From NCBI GenBank assembly GCA_964534375.1, contig CAZHPN010000007.1:66-64065 (forward strand): a DNA stretch of 64,000 bases, given 5' to 3'. The DNA comes from an uncultured bacterium (GTDB taxonomy: Bacteria; Lernaellota; Lernaellaia; Lernaellales; Lernaellaceae). The notes beneath the pieces were generated by a model. It saw only the letters and a program-made list of their open reading frames with translations. It had not been told where the DNA came from and made no database searches. Each line of letters starts with the position of its first letter. Positions within the stretch are counted from its first letter, which is position 1. This document shows positions 5,924 through 62,248 of the stretch, piece after piece. The position numbers were made by a program, and so were the translations under genes.

Positions 5924-7990
5924 ATGCCGTTATCGAAAATTCGCAATATGGGCGTGGTCGCCCACATCGACGCCGGCAAGACGACCGTGACCGAGCGCAT
6001 CCTGTTTTACACCGGCGTAACCAAACGCATGGGCGAAGTGCACGACGGCAAAGCCACCATGGACTTCATGAAACAGGAGCAGGAACGGGGCATTACGATC
6101 GCGTCGGCGGCCATCACCTGCAAATGGCAGGGCTGCACGATCAACCTGATCGACACGCCCGGGCACGTCGATTTTACGCTGGAAGTCGAGCGCTCGCTGC
6201 GCGTGCTGGACGGCATGGTCATCGTCTTTTGCGGCGTTTCGGGCGTCGAACCGCAATCGGAGACGGTCTGGAACCAGGCCGAGCGCCACCACGTGCCGCG
6301 CATCGCCTTCGTCAACAAAATGGACCGCGAAGGGGCCGATTTCGCCCACTGCCTGCAAACGATGGACGAAATGCTCGACGCCAAAGCGCTGGCCTTCCAG
6401 TTGCCGATCGGCGCGGGGGCCGATTTTGTCGGGCTGATCGACTTGGTCGAGATGAAGGCCGTCATGTACGAAGAAGAGCGCAAGGTGATCGAGGAGATTC
6501 CCGCTGCGCTGCAATCCGCGGCCGAGGTCGCCCGCGCCAAAATGCTCGACACGCTCAGCGATTTCGACGACGAGCTGGCCGAGCTGTACCTCGAAGACAA
6601 GCCCGTGCCCAGCGAGCTGATCTGGCGGGTCGCGCGGCGCTGCGTGCTCGGCGATTTGCTGACGCCGGTTTTTTGCGGCGCGGCGTACAAGAACAAGGGC
6701 ATCACGCCGCTGCTCGACGCCGTCGTTTACCTGCTGCCGTCGCCGCTCGACGCCGGGGCCGAGGTGGGCGACGACCTGGTCGAGCCGGGCAAAACGCACA
6801 AACGCGCGCCGTCGGAGCACGAGCCGTTTTCCGCGCTGGCGTTCAAGATCATCCATGATCCCTACGTCGGGCAGCAAACCTTCATCCGGATTTATTCGGG
6901 CAAGATTCAGCCGGGCGACAAGATATTCAATCCGCGGCGGAAGCGCACCGAGCGCATCGGCCGCATTTTGCACATTCACGCCCGCGATCGCATCGACGCG
7001 GAAGCGGCCGGCGCGGGGGACATCGTCGCGCTGGTCGGCATGAAGCATACGCTGACGGGCGACACGCTTTGCGACCCGGAAAATCCGCTGATGTTCGAGG
7101 CGATCAAGGCGCCCGCGACGGTGATCTCGGTGAGCGTCACGGCCGACGGCTCAAAGGAGCAGGAAAAACTCGGCATGGCGCTGGCGAAACTGGCGATGGA
7201 AGACCCGTCGTTCCAGGTGACCTACGCCGACGAGACGCGAGAGAAAATCATCTCGGGCATGGGTGAGCTGCACCTGCAGATCATCGTCGATCGCCTGAAG
7301 ACCGACTTCAATGTCGAGGCGATCGTCGGCGCGCCGAAGGTGGCTTACCGGCAGACGATTACGCGCGAGGCGCGGGCCAATTACCGGCACGTCAAGCAAT
7401 CCGGCGGCCGCGGCCAGTTTGCGCACGTGGTGTTCCGCATCGAGCCGAACCCCGACGGCGGCTACGTTTTCGAAGACCACACCAAGGGCGGCGTGATCCC
7501 CGCCGAGTATATTCCGTCGGTCGATGAAGGCATCCAGGACGCGATGGAAAAAGGCCTCGGCTTCCCCGTCGTCGACGTCAAAGTGGTGCTGGAAGACGGC
7601 AACTACCACGCGGTCGATTCGTCGGATTTTGCCTTCAAGATGGCCGGCATCATGGGCTTTAAAGAAGCGTTTGCCGCGGCCGGGCCGACGCTGCTCGAGC
7701 CGATCATGAAAATCGAGATCGCGACGCCCGACGACCATATCGGCGACATCGTCGGCGACCTCGGGCGGCGCCGCGGCCGCATCGCCAGCATGCGCCGGTT
7801 CCGCAAAGGTTCGCAGAAACTGGTCGGCTCGGTGCCGTTGGCCGAGATGTTCGGCTACGCGACGGAGTTGCGCTCGCTCAGCAGCGGCCGGGCGAACTAC
7901 TCGATGGAATTGCTGCGCTATATGCCGACGCCGGCCGACGTCGAAAAGCGCGTGCGCGAGCAAGAAGAGGAGAACGCCCGCCGCCGGTGA
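5924..7990 (+). CDS. fusA: Elongation factor G (stand-alone copy)
   Basis: [51 protein letters not shown]; no rpsL/rpsG/tuf adjacent. Confidence 0.95.
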
Positions 7991-8107
7991 GAAGATAATG
8001 CTCTCACCGGAAGACACGGAGAGCGCGCAGAGGCAGAGATTGATGGGAGGTTTTTCTCATGCATAGCAGGAGAGAGATTGATTTGATTGATCCCGTTGAT
8101 CCTGTCA
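7984..8107. repeat. Hairpin over the fusA stop plus short-period repeat arms
   Basis: CCGGTGAGA-9 nt-TCTCACCGG (7984-8010); ACACGGAGAG/CGCGCAGAG arm; GATCCCGTTGATCCTGTCA (8089-8107) before an A-tract. Confidence 0.7.
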
Positions 8108-8147
8108 AAAAAAATCAACCGACAGCGAGCCGCGCCCCGGTGGGGCG

Positions 8148-10238
8148 CTAGATCGATTTGCACCACCGTTCGAGCGTCTTACGGACCATAATCGGATCCA
8201 GCGGCTTGGCGATGTAGTCGTCCATCCCGGCCTCCAGACATTTCTCGCGCGCCCCTTGCAGCGCATGCGCGGTCATCGCGACGATCGGCACGCGGCGGCC
8301 GTCCGCTTCGGTTTTCCGAATTTCCGCCGTCGCTTCGTAGCCGTCCATCGTCGGCATGCTCGCGTCCATAAAGACGATGTCGAACGCATCCCGCCGGAGC
8401 CGCTCGACGGCTTCGCGACCGTCGGCCGCCATCTCGACTTTGCACCCGAGAATTTCCAGCAGCTTTCGGGCGACAATTTGATTGATGGCGTCGTCCTCGA
8501 CCACCAACACGCGGATTCCAAAGCGACGCGGCGCGGCGGCGGCAACCGGCGGTTTCGCCGGCGGGCGGGCCGCTTCGCGCCCGCGGCGCGCGTCCCACGT
8601 CGTCGACAAGACCTCCGCCAGCAGCGATTGGCGCAGCGGCTTGGATACATAGGCGTCAAAACCGAGGTCCTGGATGCGCTTGATGCCGGCCAACTGCGCC
8701 AGCGACGCCGCGAGCAGCAGCAGCACGCCCTTGAGCTCCGGATTGGCTTTGATCGCGCGCGCCAACGTCATGCCGCCGCGGTTCGGCAATTCGAAATCGA
8801 CGATGGCGATGGCATACGGATCGGCGGCCCGCGCCGCGGAAAATAGCTCGTCAAGGGCCTCGTCGGCGGCGGCGACGGCGTAGGCGCGGATCTTCTGACT
8901 GGTCAATTCATCGACGAGAATCCGCTGATTCGCCGGATTGTTCGCGACGACCAACACGCGTTTGCCCGCCAGATCGGCGACCGGCGGCGCGGCGCCGTTC
9001 GGGGCCGGCGCCGGCGGCAGCGGCAGGACGACGTCGAAAACCGAACCGGCGCCGACGCGGCTTTGCACCGCGATGCGCCCGTGCATCAAATCGACCAGGC
9101 GCTTGGTGATCGCCAAACCCAGGCCGGCGCCGCCGAGGGCGCGGACGCCGGCGCCACCGCCCTGCGCGAATTTCTCGAACAACCGCGCCATCAGCTCCGG
9201 CTCGATGCCGATGCCCGTGTCGGTGACACGGATGTGAAAGCCGGCCACGGCGTCCGCGGGGGTGTAGCGAATTTCCACGGTGACGCCGCCTTCGCGGGTG
9301 AATTTTACGGCGTTGCTCAGGAGATTCGTCAAGATTTGCCGGACCCGCAGACTGTCGCCGGCGACCCAGCGCGGCGCGTCGGGCGCGTAATGCAGCGTGA
9401 TCTCGAAGCCCTGTTCCTCGGCGCGGCCGGCCAGCATCTGCGCGACCTCTTCGGCGGTGGCCTGCAAATCGAACGGCGCCGGTTCCAGTTCGAGGCGGCC
9501 CGCCGCGATGCGGGAATAGTCGAGGACGTCGTTGATCACCGCCAGCAGCGCCTCAGACGAGCGAAACGCCAACTCGGCAAATTCCCGCTGCTGCACCGAT
9601 AAATCAGCGCCGAGCAGGAAGCGCAGCATGTTGATGACGCTGTTGAGCGGCGTGCGAATCTCGTGGCTCATGTTCGCGAGAAAATCGTTCTTGGCGTTGT
9701 CGGCCTGCGCGGCCCGCGCCATCGCCCCCAACAAATCCGTTTCGGTCTGCTTGCGGCGCGCGATTTCCTGGTGCAACGCCTCGTTGGCCTCGGTGAGTTG
9801 CTGCGTGCGGCGTTCGACCTGCTCTTCCAGATCTTTTCGATGCGAGGCCAATTCCGTTTCCGCGCGCCGCGTCGCCGTCACGTCGTGGACGTGCGAGATG
9901 GTGCCGCGCAGCCGCAGGGCCGGCGCATCCAGAATGTTCAAGTTCCATTCCAGGATTTTCCGAGCGCCGTCCGCGTTGACGAACGTTCGTTCGCCCCCCC
10001 ACCGCCCGTCGCGCCGCAACGCCCGCTTGGCCTCGAGATACGACGCTTCCGGATCGGGGGCGCCGAACAACTGCGAGACAAAGGCGCCGACGGCTTTTTC
10101 CGCGGGGATGCCCAGCAAATCTTCGGCCGCGGCATTGAGAAAAACGAGACGGTCGTCATCGTCGGCGACCAGAATCGGCTCGTCGACGGAGTAGACCGAA
10201 GCGAGCACGGAGACTTCTTTTTTTGCGACAACGTCCAT
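8148..10238 (-). CDS. Hybrid sensor histidine kinase (PAS-HisKA-HATPase-REC-REC)
   Basis: FLANMSHEIRTPLN, QILTNLLSNAVKFT, DTGIGI, GAGLGLAI; receivers AIVDFELP and VFMDASMP..DG. Confidence 0.93.
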   Translation of the reverse strand: MDVVAKKEVSVLASVYSVDEPILVADDDDRLVFLNAAAEDLLGIPAEKAVGAFVSQLFGAPDPEASYLEAKRALRRDGRWGGERTFVNADGARKILEWNLNILDAPALRLRGTISHVHDVTATRRAETELASHRKDLEEQVERRTQQLTEANEALHQEIARRKQTETDLLGAMARAAQADNAKNDFLANMSHEIRTPLNSVINMLRFLLGADLSVQQREFAELAFRSSEALLAVINDVLDYSRIAAGRLELEPAPFDLQATAEEVAQMLAGRAEEQGFEITLHYAPDAPRWVAGDSLRVRQILTNLLSNAVKFTREGGVTVEIRYTPADAVAGFHIRVTDTGIGIEPELMARLFEKFAQGGGAGVRALGGAGLGLAITKRLVDLMHGRIAVQSRVGAGSVFDVVLPLPPAPAPNGAAPPVADLAGKRVLVVANNPANQRILVDELTSQKIRAYAVAAADEALDELFSAARAADPYAIAIVDFELPNRGGMTLARAIKANPELKGVLLLLAASLAQLAGIKRIQDLGFDAYVSKPLRQSLLAEVLSTTWDARRGREAARPPAKPPVAAAAPRRFGIRVLVVEDDAINQIVARKLLEILGCKVEMAADGREAVERLRRDAFDIVFMDASMPTMDGYEATAEIRKTEADGRRVPIVAMTAHALQGAREKCLEAGMDDYIAKPLDPIMVRKTLERWCKSI

Positions 10239-10823: not shown

Positions 10824-12131
10824 CTATTCGCCGGCGGCCGGCAATTCGACGACTCCCGGCGTTGTCGCCGCGTCGTACACTTTGTCACGCAGGCGAAACG
10901 CGGAGATCGTTTCCGCGACGCCGAGACGTCGCACGAGCCGGCCGCCGACTGCGCCGACAAACTCGGCCGCGGCGGCGCGATAAACTTCGGCCCAATCGCC
11001 GGTCATGCCCGATTCGATGCCGATCGTATATGCCGAGCGGCCGGCGCGCACGGCCAGCGGCGGCTCTTGGGTCGTCTCGGCCATGCCGCGCCGCAGCCAG
11101 ATGACGCCGTCGGTGCCGGCCACCTCGACCTGCAAATCGTGCGGATAAAACGCCGACCGCACGTGCATGTCCGGCGCGTACGCGCACTCGAGCGCGCCGA
11201 CCCGGCCCGCCGCGGCGAACCGCACGCCGATCAGGGCCTGGCCGCCCGCGCCGTCCATCGGGCCGACGTAGGCCGCCAGCCGCGCCGCCGGCCCGCCGAG
11301 AAACGTCAGCAACGGAAAATGGTCGAACGCCGGGTGCCGCAACGGCCAGTCGCCGAACGGCGGCGCCAGCGACAGCGCGGCGCCCTTGCCGCCGAGAACG
11401 GCGCGCACGCGAACGGTCGTCAACTCGCCGATTTCGCCGGCCGCGAGCAGTTCCCGCAACCGCACCGCGGGCGCGAAATACAAATAGGAATAGAACAACC
11501 GCACCGGGACGCCGCGACTCTGGGCATCGGCGAAGAGCGCCGCGACCGTCGCCGCATCCGCCGCCGGGCCGGCGTGCAGCGACACGGCTGCGCCCGCGGC
11601 CATCGTCTGGCGCGCGAGGTCCGCCGCTTCCGGCCGATCCAGCGCGATCTCGACGCCGTCGGCCGGCTCGCCCGCCGGCACGATGCGGCAATCCGGCCGC
11701 GCCGCATAGGCGTCGCGCAGAAAGGGAAATTCCCAGTGCTCGCCGGCAAAGGCGATGCGCGCCGGCGCCGCGGCCTGTCGCCCGGGGAACGCCGCGACGG
11801 CGGCAAAGGTCGGCGCGGCGGGCGCCGGCGCTTCGACGTGATGCCGCAGCACGCCTTGCAGCACGGCGCGAAACTGCGGGCCCCGGGCTTCCAAGATGAT
11901 GCGGCGCACGGCCTCGCGGCCCTTCGGGTCGTCGCGGAGCAGGTCGCGCAACTCGCGCAATTGCCCGACGTCCGCCTTCCCTTTCGTCGTCGCTTGCATG
12001 ACGCGCTCGGCGCCGTTCAGCAGAGCAATCAGCGCCCTCGCCGGCAACCGCGCCGCGAGCCGCGCCATGCGCCACGCGCACCACGCCGCCGCCTGCCGCA
12101 ACGCCCGCGCTCCGCGGTTTACCTTAGGCAT
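10824..12131 (-). CDS. Gfo/Idh/MocA-like protein with extra N-terminal helical domain and degenerate NAD-binding fold
   Basis: C-terminal half is homologous to the upstream Gfo protein (GEIGELTTVRV; VEVAGTDGVIWL); no GxGxxG or EKP motif. Confidence 0.7.
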   Translation of the reverse strand: MPKVNRGARALRQAAAWCAWRMARLAARLPARALIALLNGAERVMQATTKGKADVGQLRELRDLLRDDPKGREAVRRIILEARGPQFRAVLQGVLRHHVEAPAPAAPTFAAVAAFPGRQAAAPARIAFAGEHWEFPFLRDAYAARPDCRIVPAGEPADGVEIALDRPEAADLARQTMAAGAAVSLHAGPAADAATVAALFADAQSRGVPVRLFYSYLYFAPAVRLRELLAAGEIGELTTVRVRAVLGGKGAALSLAPPFGDWPLRHPAFDHFPLLTFLGGPAARLAAYVGPMDGAGGQALIGVRFAAAGRVGALECAYAPDMHVRSAFYPHDLQVEVAGTDGVIWLRRGMAETTQEPPLAVRAGRSAYTIGIESGMTGDWAEVYRAAAAEFVGAVGGRLVRRLGVAETISAFRLRDKVYDAATTPGVVELPAAGE

Positions 12132-13215
12132 GGAGCGCCTCCTTCACGATCGCGTCGGTCACCTCGTCGGGCCGCACTTCAACGCCCCGGCGCGCCGCGA
12201 CGATCAGCGCGAAGGCGAACCGCAGCACCTCCAGCGCGCGCTCGCCCGTGAGCAATGTGTCGCGGTTCTCCAGGATCGCCCTCGGGAAATCGCGGATGCC
12301 CGCGGTGAAGCTGGCCTGCCAATCCGCGTCCAGGTCTTCGAACAGCGTCCGGCGGCCGTCGCGCCGCAAGATGAGCGCCGGCTGGTCGGCCATCTGGCCC
12401 GTGCAGCGCGTCAACTCGATCGCGCCGCGCGTGCCGACGATCTCGACGCGCTCGTCGGCGCCGAAATACTTCGAATGCGTGTAGAGGTTCGGCTGGAACG
12501 CGATATCGAAGCCGCCGAGCGTGCGGCGGTCTTTGTATTGCCAGATCAACTGCGCCGGCTCGTCGATAAAGGCGAACGAGCGGTCGATGAATCCCTTCAC
12601 CGCCGCAATCGCGCCTATGAAGTGGATCGCCAGCGATAATTTGTGATAGCCGTCGTCGAACACCGCCTGGCCGCGGCCCTGCTCGATTTCGAGCAGGTGC
12701 CACATCTCCGAGCGCAGCGCCGGCGCCCGCGCGCCGAACAACCCCGTGCCGAGCTTGAAGCGGATCGTCAGCGGCTCGCCGATTTCGCCGGCGTCGAGCA
12801 GTTCCTTCGCCCGGACGTAGGGCGGATAGAACACGAAGTTTTCGATCACGCGAAACTTGCCCTGGGCGGCGCGCGCCGCCGCGACCATTTCCTCCGCTTC
12901 GGCGATGCTCGTGGAAATCGGCTTCTGGCAGGCGACGTGTTTGCCGGCCGCCAGCGCCTCAACCGTCAACTTCTTGTGCAAATGGTGCGGCGTGTTGATC
13001 TCGACGATGTCGATGCCGGGGTCGGCCAGCGCCTCGCGGTAGTCGGTCGTGGTTCGCGCCACGCCCCACTCGGCCCGCCGTCGTTCGAGCAGCGCCGGGT
13101 CGACGTCGCACAGCAACGCCAGTTCGGCCAGGTCGAAATCCTTGTACGCGGGAACGTGCAACATCGTGATGTCGCCGACGCCGATCATCGCGACGCGCAG
13201 CCGCCGGTCGCCCAT
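12124..13215 (-). CDS. Gfo/Idh/MocA family oxidoreductase
   Basis: VAMIGVG Rossmann start, INTPHHLH, HVACQKP, GEIGEP; 3' end overlaps the next gene start. Confidence 0.9.
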   Translation of the reverse strand: MGDRRLRVAMIGVGDITMLHVPAYKDFDLAELALLCDVDPALLERRRAEWGVARTTTDYREALADPGIDIVEINTPHHLHKKLTVEALAAGKHVACQKPISTSIAEAEEMVAAARAAQGKFRVIENFVFYPPYVRAKELLDAGEIGEPLTIRFKLGTGLFGARAPALRSEMWHLLEIEQGRGQAVFDDGYHKLSLAIHFIGAIAAVKGFIDRSFAFIDEPAQLIWQYKDRRTLGGFDIAFQPNLYTHSKYFGADERVEIVGTRGAIELTRCTGQMADQPALILRRDGRRTLFEDLDADWQASFTAGIRDFPRAILENRDTLLTGERALEVLRFAFALIVAARRGVEVRPDEVTDAIVKEALHA

Positions 13216-13272
13216 GGGGTTCTCCCGGAGAAGAGGATGTGGCGATGTTATGAGAAGACGGCGGCCGGCGTC

Positions 13273-13409
13273 AAATTCGGAACTCGGAATGCGGAATGCG
13301 GAATGCGGAGTGAACGGGCGTGGAGTTAGTGTGTCTGTCCTGGCCTAGCCGGGCGACGGACGGGTGTGGCGTCAACGATCCCATAAGTCCCATAACTCCC
13401 ATGACTCCC
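13273..13409. repeat. Composite intergenic element: 7-mer array plus 9-mer array
   Basis: AAATTCG GAACTCG GAATGCG GAATGCG GAATGCG (13273-13307); TCCCATAAG TCCCATAAC TCCCATGAC (13379-13405). Confidence 0.9.
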
Positions 13410-13446
13410 GTTAAAAACCCACCGCGCCGGCGATGCCCGGCTGCCT

Positions 13447-15040: not shown

Positions 15041-16147
15041 ATGAAAGTCCTGTTTTTAGGCGGCGCGGGCGACATGGCCGTCGAGGCCTTGCGCGAGTTG
15101 AACCGGGAGGCGAAACGGGTCGAACTGGTCACGATCGTCGATCTCGATCCGGAGAAGGCGCGGAAGAAGGTCGGCGACCTGGGTCTGGCGATCAAAACCG
15201 AAATCGAAGGCCACGACCTCTTCGACCGCGATTGGCTGGTCGCCAAGGCCGGCGATCACGACGTCGTGCTGAATTTCGCGGGGCCGTTTTACACCACCGA
15301 GAAGTACGCGGCGGAAGCGGCGCTGGCGGCCAAAAAACCCTATGTCTCGATTTCCGACGACTACGACGCCTACCTCGAGATCGTCAAGCTCGACGATGAG
15401 GCGCGCAAGGCGAACGTCAAACTGCTGACCGGTTGGGGCAACAGCCCGGGGTTGACGCAAATTCTGGCGCGCAAAGGATACAACAGCATGGACAAATGCC
15501 GCCGGATCAACGTCAACTGGGCGGCCGGCAGCAACGAAGACGTGGGCGCGACCAACCTGATGCACCTGTTCCACATTTTCCACGGCACGACGCTGCAGAC
15601 CTTCCGCGGCAAGGAAATTCCGGTGAAGACCGGCGAAGGGCGGAAGATGGTCGAGTTCCCGTATCCGATGGGTTGGCTGCCGGTCTATTACACCGGCCAC
15701 GCCGAAAGCGTCAGCCTGCCGCGCAATCTCGCCGGGCTCGAAGAGGCGACGCTGCACGGCGGCGTGCAGCCGCCCTACATTCCGACGCTGCTCAAGACGA
15801 TCGAAAAAACGGGTTTGTTCAACACCCACGAACGGCGGCGCAAGGCGGCGACCTTCTTCCACAAGGTCGAGGGCGTCTTCGCCTCGGGCGGCCTCGACAA
15901 ATCGGTCGGCCGCGTCGACGTGTACGGCGTGCATCAGGGCAAGGCCGTGTATCGCTACTACACATACATCGGCCATATCGCGGAACTGACCTCGTTGCCG
16001 GCCGTCCAGGCTTGTTTCTGGTTGGTCGACGGCAAGTTCGCCGACAAACCGGGCGGCGTCTACAGCGGCGAGCGAATTCTCGTCAACCCGGATCCGTTCC
16101 TCGAAGAACTGATCTCGCGGGGCTTGGAAATCTACTACTACGAATAG
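15041..16147 (+). CDS. Saccharopine dehydrogenase-like NAD(P)-binding oxidoreductase
   Basis: MKVLFLGGAG, VLNFAGPF, YVSISDD, GWGNSPGLT, HAESVSLPR. Confidence 0.85.
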   Translation: MKVLFLGGAGDMAVEALRELNREAKRVELVTIVDLDPEKARKKVGDLGLAIKTEIEGHDLFDRDWLVAKAGDHDVVLNFAGPFYTTEKYAAEAALAAKKPYVSISDDYDAYLEIVKLDDEARKANVKLLTGWGNSPGLTQILARKGYNSMDKCRRINVNWAAGSNEDVGATNLMHLFHIFHGTTLQTFRGKEIPVKTGEGRKMVEFPYPMGWLPVYYTGHAESVSLPRNLAGLEEATLHGGVQPPYIPTLLKTIEKTGLFNTHERRRKAATFFHKVEGVFASGGLDKSVGRVDVYGVHQGKAVYRYYTYIGHIAELTSLPAVQACFWLVDGKFADKPGGVYSGERILVNPDPFLEELISRGLEIYYYE

Positions 16148-16173
16148 GTCGCGATCGCGCGGCGGAAACGGAC

Positions 16174-16201
16174 GGGCGGGCGTGATGCCCGCCCTTTTTT
16201 T
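16174..16201 (+). terminator. Intrinsic terminator
   Basis: GGGCGGGC-GTGAT-GCCCGCCC followed by T7. Confidence 0.9.
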
Positions 16202-19873: not shown

Positions 19874-19980
19874 GAAGACTGGGAGGATCGAAGACTGAGA
19901 GACTGACAGACCGATCCCGGGCAAAGCCAAGCAGATTGCGCCAAGAAACCCCTCTCCGCCTCCCAGCCGTTCAATCTCCA
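19874..19980. repeat. Intergenic 8-mer repeat with inverted arms
   Basis: AAGACTGA GAGACTGA CAGAC (19891-19911); CTGGGAG on the left versus CTCCCAG on the right. Confidence 0.6.
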
Positions 19981-27588: not shown

Positions 27589-28826
27589 TTTCGCTCGCGG
27601 CCGAAGCGGCGCGCTGCATGCGTTGCGGCAACTGCCGCGCGGTCTGCCCGGTCTGCGAAATCACGCGGCGCGAGAACGACTCGGCCCGCGGCCGGCTGCT
27701 CCGGATTCGCCACGCCCTTGCCGCCGATCGCTGGGCCGCGCGCGACCGCGAGGCGCTCTCGCGCTGCTTACTGTGCGGCCGCTGCACCGAGGTCTGCCAT
27801 GTTCACGTCGAAACGCCGCGCGCGGTGCAGGCGGCGAAAGCGGCGAGCGGCGCCGCCGCCGGTCTGACCGATTTCGCCGCGGAATACCTGCTCGGCGATG
27901 GCGGGCGCCTCGAAACGGCGACGCGCCGTTGGCGCCGGTTCGCCGCCTGGCTCGGACGCGCGACGCCCGACGACAGCGGCCTGCGGCTGCGGTTTTCCCT
28001 GCCCTACGCGGAGGCAGGCCGCTGGCTGCCCAAGCCGCCGGCAATTTCGTACCTCGAAAAGAACACGGGCCGGGCGGCGCGGGGTCGCGAGAAAATTGCG
28101 ATATTCGCCGGTTGCGGCGCCGGGCGATTGTTCGCCGGCGTCGGCGAAGCGCTCGACCGCGTTCTCGCTAAATACGACCTCGTCGCCGCCGTGCCCGAGC
28201 AATCGTGCTGCGGCCTGCCGGCGTGGGGCATCGGCGCCGACCGCGCCGCGAAGACGGCCGCGGCCAATTGGGTCGAGGCGTTTCGCGCCGAAGAGTACGA
28301 CGCAATTCTGACGCCGTGCGCCTCGTGCGCGGCACATTTGCAGAAAATGGGTAAAGTTTCTCTGACAGGATCAACAGGATCACTGGGCCATGACGAAGAC
28401 GAGGCCACGTTCGCGGCGGATGCGGCGCGGTTGGCCGCGAAAGTCGAAGACGTCTTCGCGTGGCTCGCGCGCCGCGAACCTCAGTTCGATCTCGAGGGCC
28501 AGCGCGTCGCCGTCCACTTGCCCTGCCACGCGCGCCGCGGCGTCCGCGACGGAACTGCGGTGTTGCAAGTCTTGGCGCGAAGCGGCGCCGAAATCGTGCA
28601 ATTGCCGGATGAAATCGACCGGCGCTGTTGCGGCATGGGCGGCAGCTTCGGCGCCCGGCATCCGGACCTCTCGCGCGAAATCGCCCGTCCGAAAATCGAG
28701 GCGATGCTCGCCGCGAAACCGGACGCAATCGTCTCAAATTGCACGGGTTGCCTGGTGCAACTGCGTGATGGCGTCGGCGACAATCTCGGCGTTCCGGTCC
28801 GGCACGCGATCGAATTACTTGGGTAG
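27585..28826 (+). CDS. GlcF-like Fe-S oxidoreductase subunit (2x 4Fe-4S plus 2x CCG domains)
   Basis: GTG overlapping the upstream TGA; CMRCGNCRAVCP, CLLCGRCTEVC, QSCCG, HLPCH, RCCGMGG, NCTGC. Confidence 0.9.
   Translation: MISLAAEAARCMRCGNCRAVCPVCEITRRENDSARGRLLRIRHALAADRWAARDREALSRCLLCGRCTEVCHVHVETPRAVQAAKAASGAAAGLTDFAAEYLLGDGGRLETATRRWRRFAAWLGRATPDDSGLRLRFSLPYAEAGRWLPKPPAISYLEKNTGRAARGREKIAIFAGCGAGRLFAGVGEALDRVLAKYDLVAAVPEQSCCGLPAWGIGADRAAKTAAANWVEAFRAEEYDAILTPCASCAAHLQKMGKVSLTGSTGSLGHDEDEATFAADAARLAAKVEDVFAWLARREPQFDLEGQRVAVHLPCHARRGVRDGTAVLQVLARSGAEIVQLPDEIDRRCCGMGGSFGARHPDLSREIARPKIEAMLAAKPDAIVSNCTGCLVQLRDGVGDNLGVPVRHAIELLG
28363..28381 (-). repeat. Copy of the intergenic GATCCTGTTGATCCTGTCA element inside the GlcF-like CDS
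   Basis: Reverse complement matches 8089-8107 at 18 of 19 nt; encodes LTGSTGS in frame. Confidence 0.75.
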
Positions 28827-28927: not shown

Positions 28928-28970
28928 GCGCCACGCTTTGAGCGTGGCGCAGCCTTTCAGCCTCTGAGCT
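28928..28970. repeat. REP-like hairpin plus 8-mer repeat
   Basis: Perfect stem GCGCCACGCT-TTG-AGCGTGGCGC (28928-28950), then CAGCCTTT CAGCCTCT. Confidence 0.75.
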
Positions 28971-28975
28971 TCCCG

Positions 28976-29005
28976 TTGACACACTGCGGCAAGGCGGCTC
29001 ATACT
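28976..29005 (+). promoter_or_regulatory. Putative sigma70 promoter of the MaoC gene
   Basis: TTGACA-18 bp-CATACT; RBS GGAG before ATG 29037. Confidence 0.6.
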
Positions 29006-29498: not shown

Positions 29499-29522
29499 GT
29501 AGCCGTCTATAGTCGGATGACC

Positions 29523-29557
29523 GAAGCCGGAACCCGAGTCCCGAATCCCGAATCCCG
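29523..29557. repeat. 7-mer tandem array between convergent genes
   Basis: GAAGCCG GAACCCG AGTCCCG AATCCCG AATCCCG. Confidence 0.85.
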
Positions 29558-29559
29558 CG

Positions 29560-29934: not shown

Positions 29935-30008
29935 AACCCCTCCTGCTTTCAGTGGCCGGAATCGTAGCCGCGCTCGCGAACACGGTCAAGGCGCCACCGT
30001 CGAAGGAA

Positions 30009-30168
30009 GGAAAAAGGAAAAAGGAAAAAAAGGAAAGCGGCGGCGCGGGCGTTTGGTGACGGGGTGATCGCCGCCGCACGCACGTTGGCAAGACGCCAGC
30101 TTTCAGCTTCGCAGCGTCACCTGCCTTTCAGCCCCGCGGTCGTGCCGCGCAGCCTCTCAGCCTTTCAG
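30009..30168. repeat. Intergenic (GGAAAAA)3 array and CAGCCT(C/T)T 8-mer array
   Basis: GGAAAAA x3 at 30009-30029; CAGCCTCT CAGCCTTT CAG at 30150-30168, touching the stop of the next gene. Confidence 0.7.
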
Positions 30169-32246
30169 TCTCCGTAGTGCTTCCAGTACCGGCGGCTCGG
30201 GGTCTGGAAATTCAAATCGAGGCGTTCGCCGTTGAAGTTGATGATCGTGTCGTTCGTGCCGTAGGCCTGGGTGGCGTATTTGTTGTCCCAGCGATCGTAC
30301 GGGCCGAGGTCGACGGTTTGGCCGGCGACCGTCATCGGGCCTTCGCGGCCGACGACGACCAGGCCCTGGCTCGGCGAATCGTATTCCACGTCGCTGCCAA
30401 TCGTCACTTTGGCGTTTTCGATGTCGCTGACGAACTGCGAGAACTCGCCGTTAGCCGTGGCGTCGCCGAGCTCGACGATCCAGACGTTTTCTTCGCCGTC
30501 GGCGATCAATTCGTAATCGTTGGCGGTCGACCACGTCGTCGGGTTTTGCGAATAGAGCGCGAGGTACGAATCGCCCTTCTTGCCGATCGTCCAGTTGCCG
30601 GATTGGACGACCTGGTCGAACCCCGACTGCTGGAAATAGGCGTGGGTGTACTTGGTGCACAGGCCGTCGATCAGCGGCAACGTCGGCCGCCAATATTGCA
30701 GGACGCCGACGTTCTTGTAGTACGTGCCGCGCGGCTGCCAGCCGCCGGTCCATTGGCCGTCGTCGCCGGTGGAGAGGCTTGGGTAGGTGGTCGTTACGAA
30801 GGCGTTCTTGTCGATCGTCGCCAGCCAGACGAGCACCTGCGCCGACCAGACCGCCGGTTTGTAATCCTGCGCGCCGGAAAGCTGATAATACGCCGTGCGG
30901 TAGGTGTACGTGCTGGATTCCTCCAACTCCACGCCCTGCGACAGCGGCGCGAGCAAATTCGCCGCGTCTTTCAGCAGCGGGCTGCCGACCAGCGGCTTGA
31001 GGAACGTCAGGCCGCTCCAAAGATAGCCTTTCCACAGGTCGTATTGATTGACGAGGGCGAAAGTGCCTTCGATCACGTCCGGCGCCACGTAGCCCGTGGT
31101 TCCCCACCAGAAAATGACGTCGTTCACCGCCGTGTAGCCGATGCCGTATTTCGGCCCGTTGACGAGATTGACGCTATCGGTCTGCTTGTTTTCGAAACTG
31201 GCCTTCGCGTCGTTGGCGATGTCTTCCATGATCGGCGGCGGCCAATACTTCTTGCTGGTGGCGAGCATCGTGCCCGTGAATTCGGCCGGATTTTGCGACG
31301 CGCACAGGCCGAGCATGATGTGCGCCGCTTCGGTCGTCGAGTCGCTGAGGCCGTTGAGCATGTGATCGGAATAGGTGCGGCCGTGGCTCGTCGCGTAAAG
31401 CCCGTTGTAATAGTTCGAGGCGAAATCGAAATTCAACACGTCAAGCGCCATGTGGGCTTCGAGCGCGATGTCCGGATCCTCCGCAAAGTCGGCAAGGTTG
31501 ACCAGCGCGGGCATATCCTCGTCGAAGTAAACGTTCGAGTGGAATTCAGAGAAGCCGAACAAACCGCGCATGTCGAGCCAGCGTTTTTCGAGCGGTTGCC
31601 CGTGGGCGACGTGCTGCTGGCCGGTCATGCCCGAGTTGGTGAAGATGCTGGTTGGGAAAAGCTGGCCGGCGAGGATTTCCGCTGAGTGGTACAGGTTCTG
31701 ATGATTTTCGGACCACCAGCACAGATCGTCCGGCCCGGTTTCGTCGAGCCAATACTTGAAGCCGAGGACCGTCGTTTCGATCGACTGCCGCAAGGCGGCC
31801 GGCAGCACATGCTTGTCGTTGTCCAGATAGAGGATGCGCAAGAGCGCGGCCATGTCGAAGTCCGACGTGTCCTGCCGCGCGTTAACCTTCGTCAGCGACG
31901 CGTTGATCGCATCTTCGTCGAACGTCGTCTGGCCGGTGGCGACGCGGCAGCATTGCGCGTCGAGCCCGCCGCCCGCGCCCGGCGCGCCGGCCGCGCTGCA
32001 CGCCGCGAGATACGCCGCCTGCCGGCTCAAAAATCCGGCCGTGGGCAGAATTGGGTCGCCGCTGTCGTCGTCGGCGGGCGAAACGTCGTCGTCGGCCGGC
32101 GACGCGTCGTCGTTGTCGTCGTCATCGGGCGTGGCGTCGTCGTCCGCGGCGGTCGATGACGACGACGACGTGCCGCTGCACGTTAAAGCGGCGAACGAGA
32201 AAACAATCACACCCAAGAGTGAGAGCAGGCTACGATGGAAGGGCAT
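30165..32246 (-). CDS. Predicted lipoprotein with Asp-rich linker and large unknown domain (possibly lyase/heparinase-like)
   Basis: Signal peptide ending ALT-C; DDDATPDDDDNDDASPADDDVSPADDD; motifs WWSENHQ, FSEFHSNVY, HGRTY; fold call is weak. Confidence 0.75.
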   Translation of the reverse strand: MPFHRSLLSLLGVIVFSFAALTCSGTSSSSSTAADDDATPDDDDNDDASPADDDVSPADDDSGDPILPTAGFLSRQAAYLAACSAAGAPGAGGGLDAQCCRVATGQTTFDEDAINASLTKVNARQDTSDFDMAALLRILYLDNDKHVLPAALRQSIETTVLGFKYWLDETGPDDLCWWSENHQNLYHSAEILAGQLFPTSIFTNSGMTGQQHVAHGQPLEKRWLDMRGLFGFSEFHSNVYFDEDMPALVNLADFAEDPDIALEAHMALDVLNFDFASNYYNGLYATSHGRTYSDHMLNGLSDSTTEAAHIMLGLCASQNPAEFTGTMLATSKKYWPPPIMEDIANDAKASFENKQTDSVNLVNGPKYGIGYTAVNDVIFWWGTTGYVAPDVIEGTFALVNQYDLWKGYLWSGLTFLKPLVGSPLLKDAANLLAPLSQGVELEESSTYTYRTAYYQLSGAQDYKPAVWSAQVLVWLATIDKNAFVTTTYPSLSTGDDGQWTGGWQPRGTYYKNVGVLQYWRPTLPLIDGLCTKYTHAYFQQSGFDQVVQSGNWTIGKKGDSYLALYSQNPTTWSTANDYELIADGEENVWIVELGDATANGEFSQFVSDIENAKVTIGSDVEYDSPSQGLVVVGREGPMTVAGQTVDLGPYDRWDNKYATQAYGTNDTIINFNGERLDLNFQTPSRRYWKHYGD

Positions 32247-34409: not shown

Positions 34410-34581
34410 TGTGCGCCTCCGACGTTTTCCAAGTCGATAATGCGCCTTGCGCCCGGCTCCGGCGACCCGATTCTTGCGGCGATTTCGAGGAGCAAAAATG
34501 ACCAGGAACCCGAACCGCGGACCGATCGCCGCACCCTTGACGCACCTTAGCCCGCCGTAGTCTGATAACCGCGGAACCAGT

Positions 34582-34652
34582 GGAATTATGGGGGTAATGG
34601 GAGCGGAAAATTTGCTTGACGGCAGACGCCTCCACGCGACTCCCATAATTCC
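34582..34652. repeat. Inverted repeat built from the TCCCAT(A/G)A 9-mer family
   Basis: GGAATTATGGGGGTAATGGGAG (34582-34603) and CTCCCATAATTCC (34640-34652). Confidence 0.75.
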
Positions 34653-34681
34653 CAATTTTCAACCCAGAAGCGAGAGCGGCG

Positions 34682-36985: not shown

Positions 36986-37069
36986 GAAGCCGAACCCCGA
37001 ACCCCGGAACCCGGAACCCGAACCGCGAATCCCTTTGTGTCTTCCGTGCCCTCCTCTGTGCCCTCGGTG
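36986..37069. repeat. Composite element: GAACCC(C/G) 7-mer array plus CTCTGTG-type 9-mer array
   Basis: About 7 heptamer units at 36986-37033, then TTTGTGTC TTCCGTGCC CTCCTCTGTGCC CTCGGTG. Confidence 0.85.
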
Positions 37070-40424: not shown

Positions 40425-40493
40425 CGCTTTGCACTCGTCGCCGCCGCGACCGATGGCGATCGAGCCTGCCGCAGGAAGATTTTGATCGTTTAG

Positions 40494-40637
40494 CCATAGA
40501 TTGCGCAGATTTACGCAGATGCACGGGCCGCGGATGGCGCTCGATAGGGCGGAATCCGTCATGGCCCGCGCCATATCTGCGTCCATCTGCGTTCATCTGC
40601 GGCCAAAAGAACCTTGGGTTGCGGCCGCGGGCCGCAC
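40494..40637. repeat. Long hairpin element with 10-mer inverted arms, plus an adjacent small hairpin
   Basis: Left CCATAGATTG CGCAGATTTA CGCAGATGCA; right CATATCTGCG TCCATCTGCG TTCATCTGCG; inner CGGGCC/GGCCCG and CGGAT/ATCCG pairs; TGCGGCC-GCG-GGCCGCA at 40620-40636. Confidence 0.85.
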
Positions 40638-41047
40638 TGCGACTCTGTGGTTCAATCCTGAAAGCGCCGCTGCAGACCGGCGGACGCGTGGAATGTCTCG
40701 GCCGCGGACCGGGCGCGACGTGGCGGAAAAGAGGCAATGTCCTCAAGAGAGGGTAATAATGAGGGTACAATGATTCCGCGACGTCGTTCGCGATGGAGGG
40801 CCTTGGTCTTCAATTTCCAACAAGGATTGGTCGCGGCAAACCGCGGGGGCAAAATGAACCGAATTTGCCGAGAGTTCCGCTTTCCGCGCCCCGAAAGGCC
40901 TTTGCGAGCGCATCACACGTCGCCGCCGACAGCGGGTCAAGACCCGTGATTCGAATCGGCATGCGAAGCGCGTGAAACGGCCGGCCGCGCCGGAGCCGTG
41001 CGAAGGCGGGGGCGCAACGGAATCGCGATCGCCGAACGCGGAGCAAC

Positions 41048-41077
41048 ATTGACAAGCGCCGGCGGGGCGTCAATATT
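41048..41077 (+). promoter_or_regulatory. hicBA promoter with overlapping palindrome
   Basis: TTGACA (41049)-17 bp-AATATT; ATTGAC (41048-53) and GTCAAT (41069-74) are inverted. Confidence 0.65.
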
Positions 41078-41101
41078 GGGCCGTGCGAAAGGGTGTGAAA
41101 A

Positions 41102-41347
41102 ATGCCGGTTAAAGTGCTTTCTTATACGGTGCTGTTCGAGCCTGCCGACGAAGGCGGTTACTGCGCTTATGTGCCGGCGCTTCCCGGCTGTTTCTCGCAA
41201 GGCGAAACGTTGGAAGAAGCGCGGGCGATGATTCGCGAGGCCATCGAAGGACACCTGGATTCGCTGGTCCGACATGGCGAGGCCATTCCCATCGAGCCGG
41301 CCGAACCGGTCACCGAAAGAATTGAAATTCGCGTCAAAGTGGCGTGA
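41102..41347 (+). CDS. hicB: HicB family antitoxin (short form)
   Basis: YTVLFEPADEGGYCAYVPALPGCFSQGETLEEARAMIREAI. Confidence 0.92.
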   Translation: MPVKVLSYTVLFEPADEGGYCAYVPALPGCFSQGETLEEARAMIREAIEGHLDSLVRHGEAIPIEPAEPVTERIEIRVKVA

Positions 41348-41353
41348 CCGCGG

Positions 41354-41581
41354 ATGCCGCGCCTGCCAAATCTCAAATCGCGCCAAGTCATTTCGGCATT
41401 GCAAAAAGCGGGCTTTTACATCGATCGGCAGAAGGGCAGCCACGTGCAGATGCGACGCCAGGATCGGCCCGGCGTAATCACAGTGCCGAACCACCCGGGC
41501 GCCGATGTGAAAAAGGGCATTCTCAACTCGATCATCGCCGCGTCGGGCCTGTCGGTCGAGGATTTCCTCGCGCTGCTTTAG
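41354..41581 (+). CDS. hicA: HicA family mRNA interferase toxin
   Basis: LQKAGF..DRQKGSHVQM, ITVPNH, GILNSII. Confidence 0.92.
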   Translation: MPRLPNLKSRQVISALQKAGFYIDRQKGSHVQMRRQDRPGVITVPNHPGADVKKGILNSIIAASGLSVEDFLALL

Positions 41582-58560: not shown

Positions 58561-58630
58561 ATTGCGGATTGCGGATTGCGGACTGCCGATTGCCGAAATT
58601 CTCGGCGTCCTCTGCGTCCTCGGCGGTTAA
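58561..58630. repeat. Composite element: 7-mer array plus 9-mer array between convergent genes
   Basis: ATTGCGG x3, ACTGCCG, ATTGCCG; then CTCGGCGTC CTCTGCGTC CTCGGCGGT TAA. Confidence 0.9.
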
Positions 58631-60214: not shown

Positions 60215-62209
60215 ATGAAGGCGAGGATTTTTTCACTAATGGGTCTCGCGCTTTTGCTGGGCTTGATCGTTGGCGTCGTGGCGTCTTGCGGCAGTACAAG
60301 CAGCAAGGCCAGCAGCCAACAGGCCGACGACGACAATGACGACAATGACAACGACACGACGGACGACGACGGGTCGCCTACGCCGGACGACGACGACAAC
60401 GACACGACGGATGACGATGTGTCGCCTCCGGACGACGATGACGACGCCTGCAGCGCCAGCAATTGCCCGAGCGGCTGTTGCGACGCCAGCGGAACCTGCC
60501 AGCCCGGCACCGCCAATGGCGCGTGCGGCACGAACGGCGCGGGCTGCATCGCCTGCAGCGCCGGCAACGAATGCACGAATCAAAGTTGCGTCGCTTATTG
60601 CGCTCCGACCGACTGCGCGACGGGATGCTGCAGTGGAACGACATGCGAGGCCGGAACCGCGGCTGCCCAGTGCGGCGCGGCGGGCGCGGCCTGCGTCGCC
60701 TGTGCGACCGGACAAGCCTGCGTCAGCGGCGCCTGCGTGTGCAATGCGGCCAGTTGCCCGAACGGCTGCTGCGACGCCACCGGCAATTGCCAGCCGAGCG
60801 TCGTCGCCACGTGCGGCTTGGACGGCGTGGTCTGCGTCGCCTGCGCGACCGGGCAAGCCTGCGTCGACGGCGCGTGCACGTGCGACGCGGCCAGTTGCCC
60901 GAGCGGCTGCTGCGACGCGAGCGGCAACTGCCAGCCCGGCGACACGGCTGCCGTCTGCGGCGGCAGCGGCGGCGCCTGCGTCGCCTGCGCGACCGGACAA
61001 GCCTGCGTCAACGGCGCGTGCACGTGCGACGCGGCCAGTTGCCCGAGCGGCTGCTGCGACGCGAGCGGCGACTGCCAGCCAGGCGACACCGACGCCGTCT
61101 GCGGCGGCAGCGGCGGCGCCTGCGTCGCCTGCGCGACCGGGCAAGCCTGCGTCAGCGGCGCCTGCACCTGCGACGCGGCCAGTTGCCCGAGCGGCTGCTG
61201 CGACGCCGGCGGCAACTGCCAGCCCGGCGACACCGATCCGGTCTGCGGCGGCAGCGGCGGGGCCTGCGTCGCCTGCGTCACCGGGCAAGCCTGCGTCAGC
61301 GGCGCCTGCACCTGCGACGCCGCCAGTTGTCCGAACGGCTGCTGCGACGCGAGCAGCCTCTGCCAGCCTAATGCCCCCGCCGCTTGCGGCACAGACGGCG
61401 AATCCTGCTTCGCCTGCCGGACCGGGCAAGACTGTGTCAGCGGCGCGTGTACGTGCGACGCGACCAGTTGCTCGGCGGGCTGTTGCGATGTGAACAACGA
61501 CTGCCAGGCCAACGCCCCCGGCACATGCGGCACGGACGGCGAGGCCTGCTTCGCGTGCGCCGCAGGCCAAGACTGCGTTACGGGCTTGTGCACGTGTGAC
61601 GCGACCAGTTGCCCGAACGGCTGCTGCGACGGAAGCGGCAACTGCCAGGCGGGCGCGGTTCTGACCGCGTGCGGCACCGGCGGCGTCTCGTGCGTCGATT
61701 GCTCGGCTTTGACGAATGAGTACTGCGGTCCGCAGCAAGCGTGCGTGGCCGACGACGCCGAAACGGTGTGGACCGATTCGACTTCCGGGTTGACGTGGCA
61801 GGACGGCGAAACGGTCGGGACTACGCCCTCCGATTTCGCGGATGCCCCGACTTACTGCACGGGTCTGACGTGGAACGGTCTCACCGGCTGGCGTTTGCCT
61901 GACGTCGACGAACTGCGCAGCCTGCTGCGCGGTTGCACCGGCACGGACACGGGCGGGTCCTGCGGCGTGACCGATTCGTGTTTGAACTCGACTTGCGTGA
62001 CTGGCGCCTGCGCCGGCTGCTCCAGTTTGGGCGGTCCGGCCCCCGGCGGCGCCTACTGGCCCGCGCAAATCACCGGCAGCATCAATTATTATTGGACGGC
62101 ATCGGCGGAGGGCGACGTCTCCGGCAACGGGTGGTACGTCGATTTTCGCGACGGCGCCGTGGCGGGCCTGGACGGCAACAACGGCGGCTCGTTGCGTTGT
62201 GTGCAATAG
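60215..62209 (+). CDS. Lipoprotein: Asp-rich linker, nine 10-Cys repeats, C-terminal DUF1566 (Lcl)-like domain
   Basis: VAS-C lipobox; DDDNDDNDNDTTDDDGSPTPDDDD; repeats; TDSTSGLTWQ...GWRLP..DELRSL...YYWTAS...WYVDF..G...LRCV. Confidence 0.88.
   Translation: MKARIFSLMGLALLLGLIVGVVASCGSTSSKASSQQADDDNDDNDNDTTDDDGSPTPDDDDNDTTDDDVSPPDDDDDACSASNCPSGCCDASGTCQPGTANGACGTNGAGCIACSAGNECTNQSCVAYCAPTDCATGCCSGTTCEAGTAAAQCGAAGAACVACATGQACVSGACVCNAASCPNGCCDATGNCQPSVVATCGLDGVVCVACATGQACVDGACTCDAASCPSGCCDASGNCQPGDTAAVCGGSGGACVACATGQACVNGACTCDAASCPSGCCDASGDCQPGDTDAVCGGSGGACVACATGQACVSGACTCDAASCPSGCCDAGGNCQPGDTDPVCGGSGGACVACVTGQACVSGACTCDAASCPNGCCDASSLCQPNAPAACGTDGESCFACRTGQDCVSGACTCDATSCSAGCCDVNNDCQANAPGTCGTDGEACFACAAGQDCVTGLCTCDATSCPNGCCDGSGNCQAGAVLTACGTGGVSCVDCSALTNEYCGPQQACVADDAETVWTDSTSGLTWQDGETVGTTPSDFADAPTYCTGLTWNGLTGWRLPDVDELRSLLRGCTGTDTGGSCGVTDSCLNSTCVTGACAGCSSLGGPAPGGAYWPAQITGSINYYWTASAEGDVSGNGWYVDFRDGAVAGLDGNNGGSLRCVQ
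60449..61747 (+). repeat. Nine coding repeats of about 47-50 aa with 10 Cys each
   Basis: C-x4-C-x3-CC-x4/5-C-x7/8-C-x6-C-x2-C-x5-C-x4-C; units starting at 60881, 61025, 61169 and 61313 are exactly 144 nt apart. Confidence 0.95.
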
Positions 62210-62213
62210 CGAG

Positions 62214-62248
62214 GAATCAGAAGACAGCACGCAGCACTCAGAGGACGG
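62214..62248. repeat. Degenerate 7-mer array just after the stop codon
   Basis: GAATCAG AAGACAG CACGCAG CACTCAG AGGACGG. Confidence 0.55.

Follow-up and report, generated by a model that had tools for sequence, protein, structure and literature searches.

Short-period tandem repeats recur between the genes of a 64,000-nt stretch of DNA from an uncultured bacterium (contig CAZHPN010000007.1, positions 66 to 64,065; hereafter the window), and they raise the question of whether such repeats are copies of a mobile element or simple sequences that arose where they stand. An earlier note on the window had listed twelve gaps with arrays of 7- to 10-bp units and had taken them for an actively copied system of modular arms, resembling repetitive extragenic palindromes (REPs) or miniature inverted-repeat transposable elements (MITEs), at the 3' ends of genes. 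We found that the arrays are real, strictly intergenic, restricted to one clade, not orthologous between relatives and patterned internally like local duplications. On balance we favor the view that they are simple-sequence tandem arrays, dominated by 7-bp units, that grew in place and were not copied as mobile elements.

To map the genes of the window we combined GC3 frame bias, Pfam domains and the gene calls on an identical contig, and from this map we curated 25 intergenic gaps of at least 40 bp (4230 bp in all), with the other 59.8 kb as comparison DNA. Arrays were sought with Tandem Repeats Finder (TRF) and with a tandem scorer of our own (+1 per match, -2 per mismatch, periods 5 to 12), with dinucleotide shuffles as the null. 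In the 25 gaps our scorer returned 7 arrays with a score of at least 12 (0.01 expected), 8 with a score of at least 10 (0.11 expected) and 10 with a score of at least 8 (1.17 expected, so that one such score per gap set is the noise level of the shuffles). TRF and the scorer concur on eight solid arrays, which lie in six gaps and have TRF scores of 43 to 52 (Table 1). The gaps do contain a real, non-random set of short-period arrays and hairpins. The list of twelve gaps stood in part: six carry the solid arrays, others hold weak repeats of two or three copies, one holds an inverted repeat and three had no support.

The confinement of the arrays to non-coding DNA was equally clear. Over the whole window, at a score of at least 10, period-7 arrays numbered five in intergenic and none in coding DNA, and period-10 arrays one and none; pooled, the two periods gave six arrays in 4.2 kb of intergenic DNA and none in the remaining 59.8 kb. 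Periods 6 and 9 were found mainly in coding DNA, mostly as codon repeats.

The gap 13216-13446 lies between a histidine kinase gene and a GFO/IDH/MocA-family gene. Read on the minus strand, it contains the kinase stop codon, a hairpin with a U-run (13435-13410), the G-rich nonamer array, a 70-nt spacer, the heptamer array, a -35 box (TTGACG, 13274), an 18-nt spacer, a -10 box (TAACAT) and the GFO start codon. The nonamer array lies just downstream of the terminator-like hairpin of the kinase gene (13420-13435), and on its minus strand GGGA-N5 occurs four times, which makes a canonical G-quadruplex (G4) motif. Copies in the heptamer array read TCGGAAC TCGGAAT GCGGAAT GCGGAAT GCGGA, and the array stops 2 nt short of the -35 box in the GFO promoter (TTGACG-18-TAACAT, 13274..13245, minus strand). 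The array at 29521-29557 lies in a 61-bp convergent gap, beginning 3 nt past the stop codon of a response-regulator gene; its minus strand consists of GGGATTC repeats that form a G4 motif, and its sequence is identical across four independent samples. On the minus strand the array at 30007-30036 is a T/C-rich run immediately after a 9-bp GC stem (30037-30077, 100% complementary), and 17 nt separate it from the downstream -35 box of a response-regulator promoter (29989..29961). The array at 36990-37033, in a convergent gap, also has a G4 motif on its minus strand. The hairpin built from the 10-mer arrays starts 70 nt downstream of a gene for a glycerol-3-phosphate-dehydrogenase-like protein, and the fold of 40490-40640 has a predicted energy of -82.8 kcal/mol (z -5.9), with none of 200 shuffles equally stable. 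Finally, the ATTGCGG array at 58561-58596 begins 5 nt past the stop codon of a 698-aa gene, in a convergent gap.

Table 1. Repeats and hairpins in the intergenic gaps of the window; the eight solid arrays and the hairpin formed by one of them are given first
Position	Strand	Feature	Detection
13277..13309		Heptamer array, unit GGAATGC, about 5 copies	TRF 51, scorer 20
13379..13409	-	Nonamer array TCCCATAAC, 3.4 copies	TRF 48, scorer 16, G4 regex
29521..29557	-	Heptamer array CCGAATC, 5.4 copies	TRF 46, scorer 15, G4 regex
30007..30036	-	AAGGAAA array	TRF 46
36990..37033	-	Heptamer array CCGAACC/CCGGAAC, 6.3 copies	TRF 51, scorer 18, G4 regex
40575..40605		10-mer array ATCTGCGTCC, 3 copies	TRF 48
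58561..58596	+	Heptamer array ATTGCGG, 4.7 copies	TRF 52, scorer 20
58601..58625		Nonamer array CTCGGCGTC, 2.8 copies, adjoining the 58561-58596 heptamer array	TRF 43, scorer 10
40493..40603	+	Long hairpin with inverted ATCTGCGTCC arrays as arms (40504-40525, 40575-40605)	Arms 22 nt, 86% complementary
19892..19911		Weak octamer AGACTGAC, 2.5 copies, upstream of phosphofructokinase gene	TRF 33, scorer 9
28928..28973	+	Perfect 10-bp hairpin (28928-28950), then CAGCCTTT CAGCCTCT GAGCTTCC	Inverted repeat 100% complementary
30098..30172		Loose CAGCYTT/CAGCCTYT repeats around a 5-bp hairpin	TRF 32 for 30150-30172, direct reading
34580..34663		Inverted repeat with arms of TCCCATAA-type units, divergent promoter gap	Arms 14 nt, 93% complementary
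37040..37069		Weak CTCYGTGCC-type repeat, adjoining the 36990-37033 array	Scorer 8, period 12
8132..8148		GC hairpin GCGCCCC-GGT-GGGGCGC, convergent EF-G/hybrid-kinase gap	Direct reading
62273..62300	+	Canonical intrinsic-terminator hairpin, 12-bp perfect stem, 4-nt loop, then TTTGATTTGAT	100% complementary

The window recurs as identical contigs in four independent peat or bog metagenome assemblies, and in each of three populations two to four independent samples have arrays of identical sequence. Because of this identity, the arrays are real features rather than assembly noise and are stable on short timescales. By the protein EF-G, the best named relatives are a 'Myxococcales' metagenome-assembled genome (78% identical) and Candidatus Lernaella stagnicola, of the phylum Ca. 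Lernaellota (72%), and the loci of those two proteins keep the gene order of the window (EF-G, then genes for a 136-aa protein, a protein of about 435 aa, the GFO/IDH/MocA protein and the histidine kinase). The source of the window is therefore an uncultured member of Ca. Lernaellota or a neighbor of that phylum. Arrays are also present in relatives with an EF-G 82-89% identical, although these are not syntenic to the window. We compared a set made up of the window and the relatives L017, L020, L035 and L036 (EF-G at least 82% identical) with the other loci. Array density was 1.35 per 10 kb in this array-rich set and 0.16 per 10 kb elsewhere (p=1e-5), and all 12 period-7 arrays fell into the set, versus 0 elsewhere (p=1e-6).

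The arrays of these relatives use units of the same kind at other places. L017 carries ATTGCGG, a unit also arrayed in the window, in 4.4 copies (5447-5477, 100% matches), together with four copies of CAAGCCT, 4.4 copies of AACCGGAG and an array of about 140 nt of the GAACCGGA type. L020 carries arrays of CCCGGRA, ACTCCGC, AAAATGA (twice, in opposite orientations), GACCCTA and AAATGACC. In the closest relative, L035 (EF-G 89%), an inverted pair of arrays spans 2232-2332: four to five copies of AATTCCG begin about 4 nt past the EF-G stop codon and are followed by a 45-nt GC spacer and an inverted partner, ATTCGCA in 3.5 copies, that is cut by the contig end. Because the contig ends inside this second array, the case suggests that arrays such as those of L035 may break short-read assemblies.

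Orthologous gaps, which came from L035, L022 and L032-L034 alone, differ in their array content. The gap downstream of EF-G in the window holds no array, unlike that of L035. The region upstream of EF-G (GTTAGTGTATAACCCGCGCTCTTTTG; 5803-5923 in the window, 100-160 in L035) is conserved and the region downstream is completely different. The promoter of the MaoC gene is conserved in L022, where the array is absent. No period-7, -8 or -10 array was found in the 57 kb of L032-L034, which are syntenic but more distant and Lernaella-like; this includes the orthologous GFO-kinase gap, where the GFO promoter is conserved. About 200 kb of other control loci gave four marginal matches.

With the 693-aa protein, a search of genome contigs returned only relatives that are 48-63% identical (best segment) and belong to other taxa; with the MaoC protein, the metagenome search returned two short relatives without synteny; exact-protein look-ups returned identical contigs only; and the GFO homologues P0122 and P0139 came from loci without a kinase neighbor or from an unrelated organism of 52% GC. 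Two observations concern sites beyond the array-rich set. In the orthologous GFO-kinase gap of L033, GACTTATGGGATCCATGGGA lies inside a called 64-aa open reading frame (ORF; 10893-10925), and the 13-mer GACTTATGGGATC is common to this site and, in opposite orientation, to the window nonamer array (13379-13412), with a chance of about 2e-3 for one gap pair. The contig L024 is unrelated (MaoC homolog 51% identical) and ends in the 8-mer array ACCCTGAC ACCTTGAC ACCCTGCC ACCTTGCC (1367-1402), so short-period arrays also occur sporadically outside the clade.

To look for copied elements we counted the pairs of gaps with a word in common and found 91 for 9-mers (80±7.6 in dinucleotide shuffles), 35 for 10-mers (27.7±5.1) and 13 for 11-mers (8.3±2.7), values barely above the shuffles that lend no support to the copied-element reading; no element-length sequence was shared between gaps above shuffle expectation. 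The only signals found in several gaps were array units themselves, CCGGAACCCGA in four gaps and GCCTTTCAGCC in two. The arrays had neither terminal inverted repeats nor target duplications, no cassette with a small ORF lay between arms, and neither interval between paired arrays (13310-13378, 40526-40574) holds a small ORF. Nor was a transposase, REP-associated tyrosine transposase (RAYT) or integrase domain present among the 40 window proteins scanned.

Both element classes proposed for the arrays failed on structure. The conserved 20- to 40-nt palindrome of a REP, or of a REPIN built from REPs, is absent, most arrays have no inverted repeat and k-mer sharing is close to that of shuffles. 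A MITE would require shared element-length sequence, which is missing, and the inverted-arm structures at 34580-34663 and 40493-40603 are single-copy in the window. A suggested association of such arrays with GxxExxY and four-helix-bundle genes found no support here. The system of actively copied modular arms was not supported, and we judge the reading of the arrays as a dispersed mobile family to be wrong. A narrower version, in which they are footprints or arms of a small REP/REPIN- or MITE-like element whose copying enzyme has its gene outside the window, could draw on the recurrence of unit families at unlinked sites, in both orientations and at non-orthologous sites of different genomes, and on the inverted pairs formed by some arrays. 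However, the shared sequence is limited to the 7- to 10-nt unit, each locus has array lengths and unit variants of its own, most arrays have no palindrome, no element termini, target duplications or flanked cassettes were found, and the enzymes just listed were not found in the window; we regard this version as extremely unlikely. In practice, neither 'mobile element' nor 'CRISPR-like repeat' is a suitable annotation for the arrays.

In contrast, several properties point to growth in place: the intergenic location, the clade restriction, the turnover between relatives, the lack of element-length homology and the internal structure. Array edges are degenerate and neighboring copies share variants; in the array at 36990-37033, for example, CCGAACC occurs twice and is then followed by CCGGAAC twice, a higher-order duplication, and the L017 array at 16191-16289 has higher-order periods of 24 and 32. 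We propose that the arrays would grow in situ from a short seed by slipped-strand mispairing and unequal exchange, and that growth would be tolerated at the few unconstrained stretches of this compact chromosome, namely from a stop codon or terminator to the next -35 box or between convergent stop codons. Given what is established about MutS, units of 7-10 nt should form loops that are too large for mismatch repair, and such arrays could therefore persist and drift. The process would be a habit of one clade within or near Candidatus Lernaellota, with rapid turnover between species, and the long hairpins of inverted array pairs and the G4 motifs of units with G3 tracts would be its by-products. 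We infer that the arrays have no dedicated function.

Four points weigh against growth by slippage as a sufficient explanation. Slippage itself was not observed, and the 2-4 samples of each of the three populations showed no copy-number polymorphism, so that the arrays are not hypermutable on that timescale. The third point is the choice of units. Comparing the 14 heptamer arrays of the clade irrespective of rotation and strand, we found that 16 of the 91 pairs agree within one mismatch, whereas 3.0 are expected for random intergenic heptamers and none of 5000 null draws reached 16. The vocabulary (GGAATGC, GGATTGC, CCGAATC, CCGAACC, AATTCCG) is therefore restricted (P<2e-4 against random units), and GGAATGC, GGATTGC, GGAGTGC, GAATTGC, CCGAATC, CCGAATT, CCGAACC and CCCGGAA form one connected set. 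Neutral slippage alone does not predict such a bias, for which biased seeding, ectopic conversion or selection would be needed. The fourth point is position: arrays lie close to -35 boxes, with a combined p of 0.001 against uniform placement in the free spacer for cases that were chosen post hoc. Restricted vocabulary, promoter proximity and short-term stability are all left unexplained by slippage in place, and they keep alive a reading of the arrays as cis-elements that act at the DNA level.

On that reading the arrays would be multimeric sites for a clade-specific DNA-binding protein, or structural elements (UP-like, insulating, G-quadruplex or i-motif), that tune promoters and terminators at the borders of transcription units. 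The unit vocabulary, restricted as it is across unlinked loci and genomes, is what such sites would show, as is the stability of the arrays across samples. Arrays occupy the spacer from the stop codon or terminator to the next promoter, and in five gaps they end 2-17 nt upstream of sigma-70-like -35 boxes detected by a promoter-finding tool; in L020 an array (12385-12431) stands 7 nt before the promoter of a tRNA-Leu gene, and in L017 an array (16147-16289) stands 11 nt before TTGAAC-17-TACAAT, ahead of an ExbB/TonB operon. The combined p of 0.001 includes one gap with an array far from the promoter. However, the proximity test was devised after the pattern had been seen, and we treat its result as a lead. 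Sigma-70-like promoters are themselves enriched in 28000-41500 (8 against 1.7 expected). Of the four canonical G4 motifs in the window, defined by regular expression as at least four tracts of G3 or longer with loops of 1-7 nt and hence a sequence motif only, three are arrays (13380-13409, 29533-29556 and 36995-37019, minus strand), and in all three the G-rich strand is the sense strand of the adjacent minus-strand gene, as for the GGGAATC arrays of Xanthomonas (PMC4692102). In Geobacter, heptanucleotide arrays have been annotated as putative sites of a global regulator (PMC2700814).

Against a role in cis, orthologous promoters in relatives do without arrays, convergent gaps that have no promoter account for half of the strong arrays, neighboring arrays differ in unit, and G3 quadruplexes are possible for only three of the eight arrays. 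With the post hoc nature of the proximity test added, we consider action at the DNA level possible but doubtful. G4 formation as a unifying property was rejected on the same count of three qualifying arrays in eight. A more specific proposal, that the arrays are not neutral because a clade-specific factor recognizes or lays down heptamers of the GGRNTKC type and so marks transcription-unit borders as insulators or upstream elements, seems to us quite unlikely; the marked borders would, just as tentatively, be promoter positions -40 to -80 and the nucleotides that come directly past stop codons. If it is true, heptamer repeat families of several phyla that have long gone unexplained would gain a function, together with a factor that writes or reads them. 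Should the apparent placement upstream of -35 boxes hold across the genome, it would offer a concrete, testable lead on function.

The arrays might instead act at the RNA level, as 3'-untranslated elements (hairpins, RNA G-quadruplexes, Rho-loading sites) by which the 3' ends of mRNAs are set or protected, or as sites that titrate an RNA-binding protein. Several arrays do start 0-12 nt past a stop codon (58561, 29557 and 30172 in the window; 2232 in L035 and 5447 in L017), and some genes are followed by inverted pairs of arrays with very stable hairpin folds (40490-40640; L035). Terminator-like sites with a hairpin and U-run are not enriched in 28000-41500 (16 against 19.5 expected), so that other 3'-end signals may be needed. 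However, the strand of the arrays relative to transcription is mixed and their orientation inconsistent, the sense strand being G-rich in some and C-rich in others, and arrays are present in gaps of every type (convergent, co-directional and divergent) as well as upstream of promoters. The earlier note had stressed that ten of its twelve sites lie downstream of a stop codon; this is literally true but uninformative, because 19 of the 25 gaps border a stop codon anyway. The association was not significant for that set (Fisher p=0.36) or for the eight strong arrays (p=0.15), which leaves a specific link to the 3' ends of genes or RNAs without statistical support. Orthologous 3' ends show no conservation, and Rfam 15 gave no matches at gathering score in the whole window. 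We regard action at the RNA level as very unlikely.

Three further candidates were rejected. Rho-loading sequences (C-rich, G-poor) and CsrA-type GGA sites both failed in that the relevant strand is not consistently the transcribed one. Phase-variable contingency repeats did not fit either: copy number was identical across samples, and no array lies in a coding frame or between a -35 and a -10 box.

Beyond the heptamers, the claim that unit families recur kilobases apart in both orientations stood for some units only. It held for the heptamers at unlinked sites (the 16 of 91 pairs), for CAGCCTYT (9 matches, 1.9 expected) and for TCCCATAA (3 matches, 0.26 expected), but not for GATCCTGT, whose 3 matches (0.94 expected) are not significant and include two within a gene at 28365-28381, nor for CTCYGYGYC, which is not enriched (9 matches, 10.6 expected). 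The in-gene matches of GATCCTGT, two of its three, stem from a perfect two-copy nonamer, ACAGGATCA, in the coding region of a Fer4/CCG protein (28365-28382).

The weak sites at 19892-19911, 28950-28973, 30150-30172 and 37046-37065 each have two or three imperfect copies and are near the noise. At 28950-28973 about two copies of CAGCCTYT stop 2 nt short of the -35 box in the promoter of the MaoC gene (28976..29005), and at 30150-30172 the last of 2.9 copies of CAGCCTCT overlap the stop codon (30165-30167) of the 693-aa gene. The supposed tandem array at 34582-34652 turned out to be an inverted repeat (RNA fold of 34570-34670: -35.6 kcal/mol, z -3.3). Gene calls on the identical contig place the start of the nearby Ada-like gene at 34409, not 34655, and two of the twelve gaps are divergent promoter regions. 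Neither detector scored a match at the remaining three sites: 7984-8107 has only scattered TTGAT words, 32345-32363 has ATCCTG twice, at chance level, and in the gap of 62214-62248 the real feature is the terminator hairpin at 62273-62300. Features of intrinsic terminators are present there, at 13420-13435 (minus strand) and, loosely, at 30037-30077 with the AAGGAAA run; the tandem arrays themselves are not hairpins.

The window as a whole is chromosomal DNA of 65% GC with housekeeping and sensory genes, among them those for EF-G, phosphofructokinase, histidine kinases, ABC transporters, radical-SAM enzymes and a HicAB pair; no tRNA genes were found in it. The gene for the glycerol-3-phosphate-dehydrogenase-like protein is followed by 677 bp without a called gene (40425-41581 region), which hold the 110-nt array hairpin and a promoter-like site (41049..41077); the HicB (41102-41347) and HicA (41354-41581) toxin-antitoxin genes come next. 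Coding DNA has repeats of its own. A 144-bp tandem repeat (6.9 copies, 81% matches, 60671-61648) lies inside a 664-aa gene (60215-62209, C-terminal Lcl_C domain), where it encodes Cys/Gly-rich protein repeats and bears no relation to the intergenic arrays. In the lineage and its relatives, many proteins that are unknown or predicted to be secreted contain long Asp-rich GAC/GAT codon repeats (window 2285-2397, 5563-5731, 32055-32151 and 60325-60446; L029 421-620; L017 14008-15517; L020 7494-7610), and these repeats are the source of most TRF matches at periods 3, 9, 15 and 21.

The closest known class is that of the heptameric simple sequence repeats (SSRs) or short tandemly repeated repetitive sequences (STRRs), here in a new host lineage. 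The arrays show its defining features: at least three head-to-tail 7-bp units (here also 8-10 bp) above chance, a non-coding location, related units at unlinked loci (16 of 91 pairs; ATTGCGG in the window and in L017) and variation between related species (the EF-G gap in the window and L035; the MaoC gap and L022). REPs, BIMEs, REPINs and MITEs are likewise short, intergenic, multicopy and sometimes form hairpins from inverted pairs. However, REPs are imperfect palindromes of 20-40 nt with conserved sequence and an associated RAYT, and MITEs have terminal inverted repeats and target duplications, none of which is present here. The cyanobacterial STRRs, reportedly described by Mazel and colleagues in 1990, are the classical heptanucleotides of this kind. 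Like the arrays of the window, they are tandem heptanucleotide families dispersed in non-coding DNA with few unit types per genome, and three such heptanucleotides are cited for Calothrix PCC 7601 (in PMC4692102). They differ in their units and base composition, and their arrays can be much longer and number hundreds per genome, where our count refers to a 64-kb window.

Arrays of GGGAATC in Xanthomonas and GGGGAYT in Nostoc PCC 7120 are intergenic, lie near ORF ends, sometimes in inverted pairs, vary between species and form G-quadruplexes in vitro (Rehm et al. 2015; PMC4692102). In the window, too, tandem 7-bp units belong to a genome-specific family, are overwhelmingly intergenic, occur on both strands of a genome of 65% GC, are often within 50 bp of an ORF end, include some inverted pairs, vary between species and can have G4 motifs; GGGATTC, at 29521-29557, is one base from the Xanthomonas unit. 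However, here several unit families and periods (7, 8, 9 and 10) coexist in short arrays of 3-6 copies, most units have G2 tracts only (GGAATGC, ATTGCGG, AATTCCG) and the host belongs to an uncultured lineage near Ca. Lernaellota. The excess of heptamer SSRs in the intergenic DNA of some bacteria was, as cited there, tentatively attributed to polymerase slippage (Mrazek et al. 2007, in PMC4692102).

In Geobacter metallireducens, GGACCGG is repeated four times at each of 49 loci, and MTYCTGA is repeated five times (Aklujkar et al. 2009; PMC2700814). These are likewise short arrays (4-5 copies) of heptamers at many intergenic sites, with a proposed regulatory role in a Deltaproteobacteria-like genome, and the Geobacter unit resembles the AACCGGAG/GAACCGGA arrays of L017. 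The Geobacter elements have a fixed copy number, were identified by BLAST as entire elements and are also found within genes, whereas here copy number and units vary by locus and the arrays are strictly intergenic. Direct repeats of TAACTGA are known from marine Beggiatoaceae, cyanobacteria and Bacteroidetes (MacGregor 2015; PMC4679880), and they too consist of two to six tandem heptamers (there at more than 100 intergenic sites) with a patchy phylogeny and no evident mobilizing mechanism. However, TAACTGA is a single unit whose place, a few nucleotides before start codons, suggests a role in translational control, while the window and its relatives have many units, before -35 boxes or after stop codons. 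Such heptamer SSR families have been on record for decades, and neither their origin nor their function is agreed upon; the present case adds a very distant uncultured lineage to them. It also provides a natural contrast, since array-rich genomes stand beside syntenic relatives that are free of arrays, and a comparison of their replication, repair and DNA-binding genes could show what causes the arrays.

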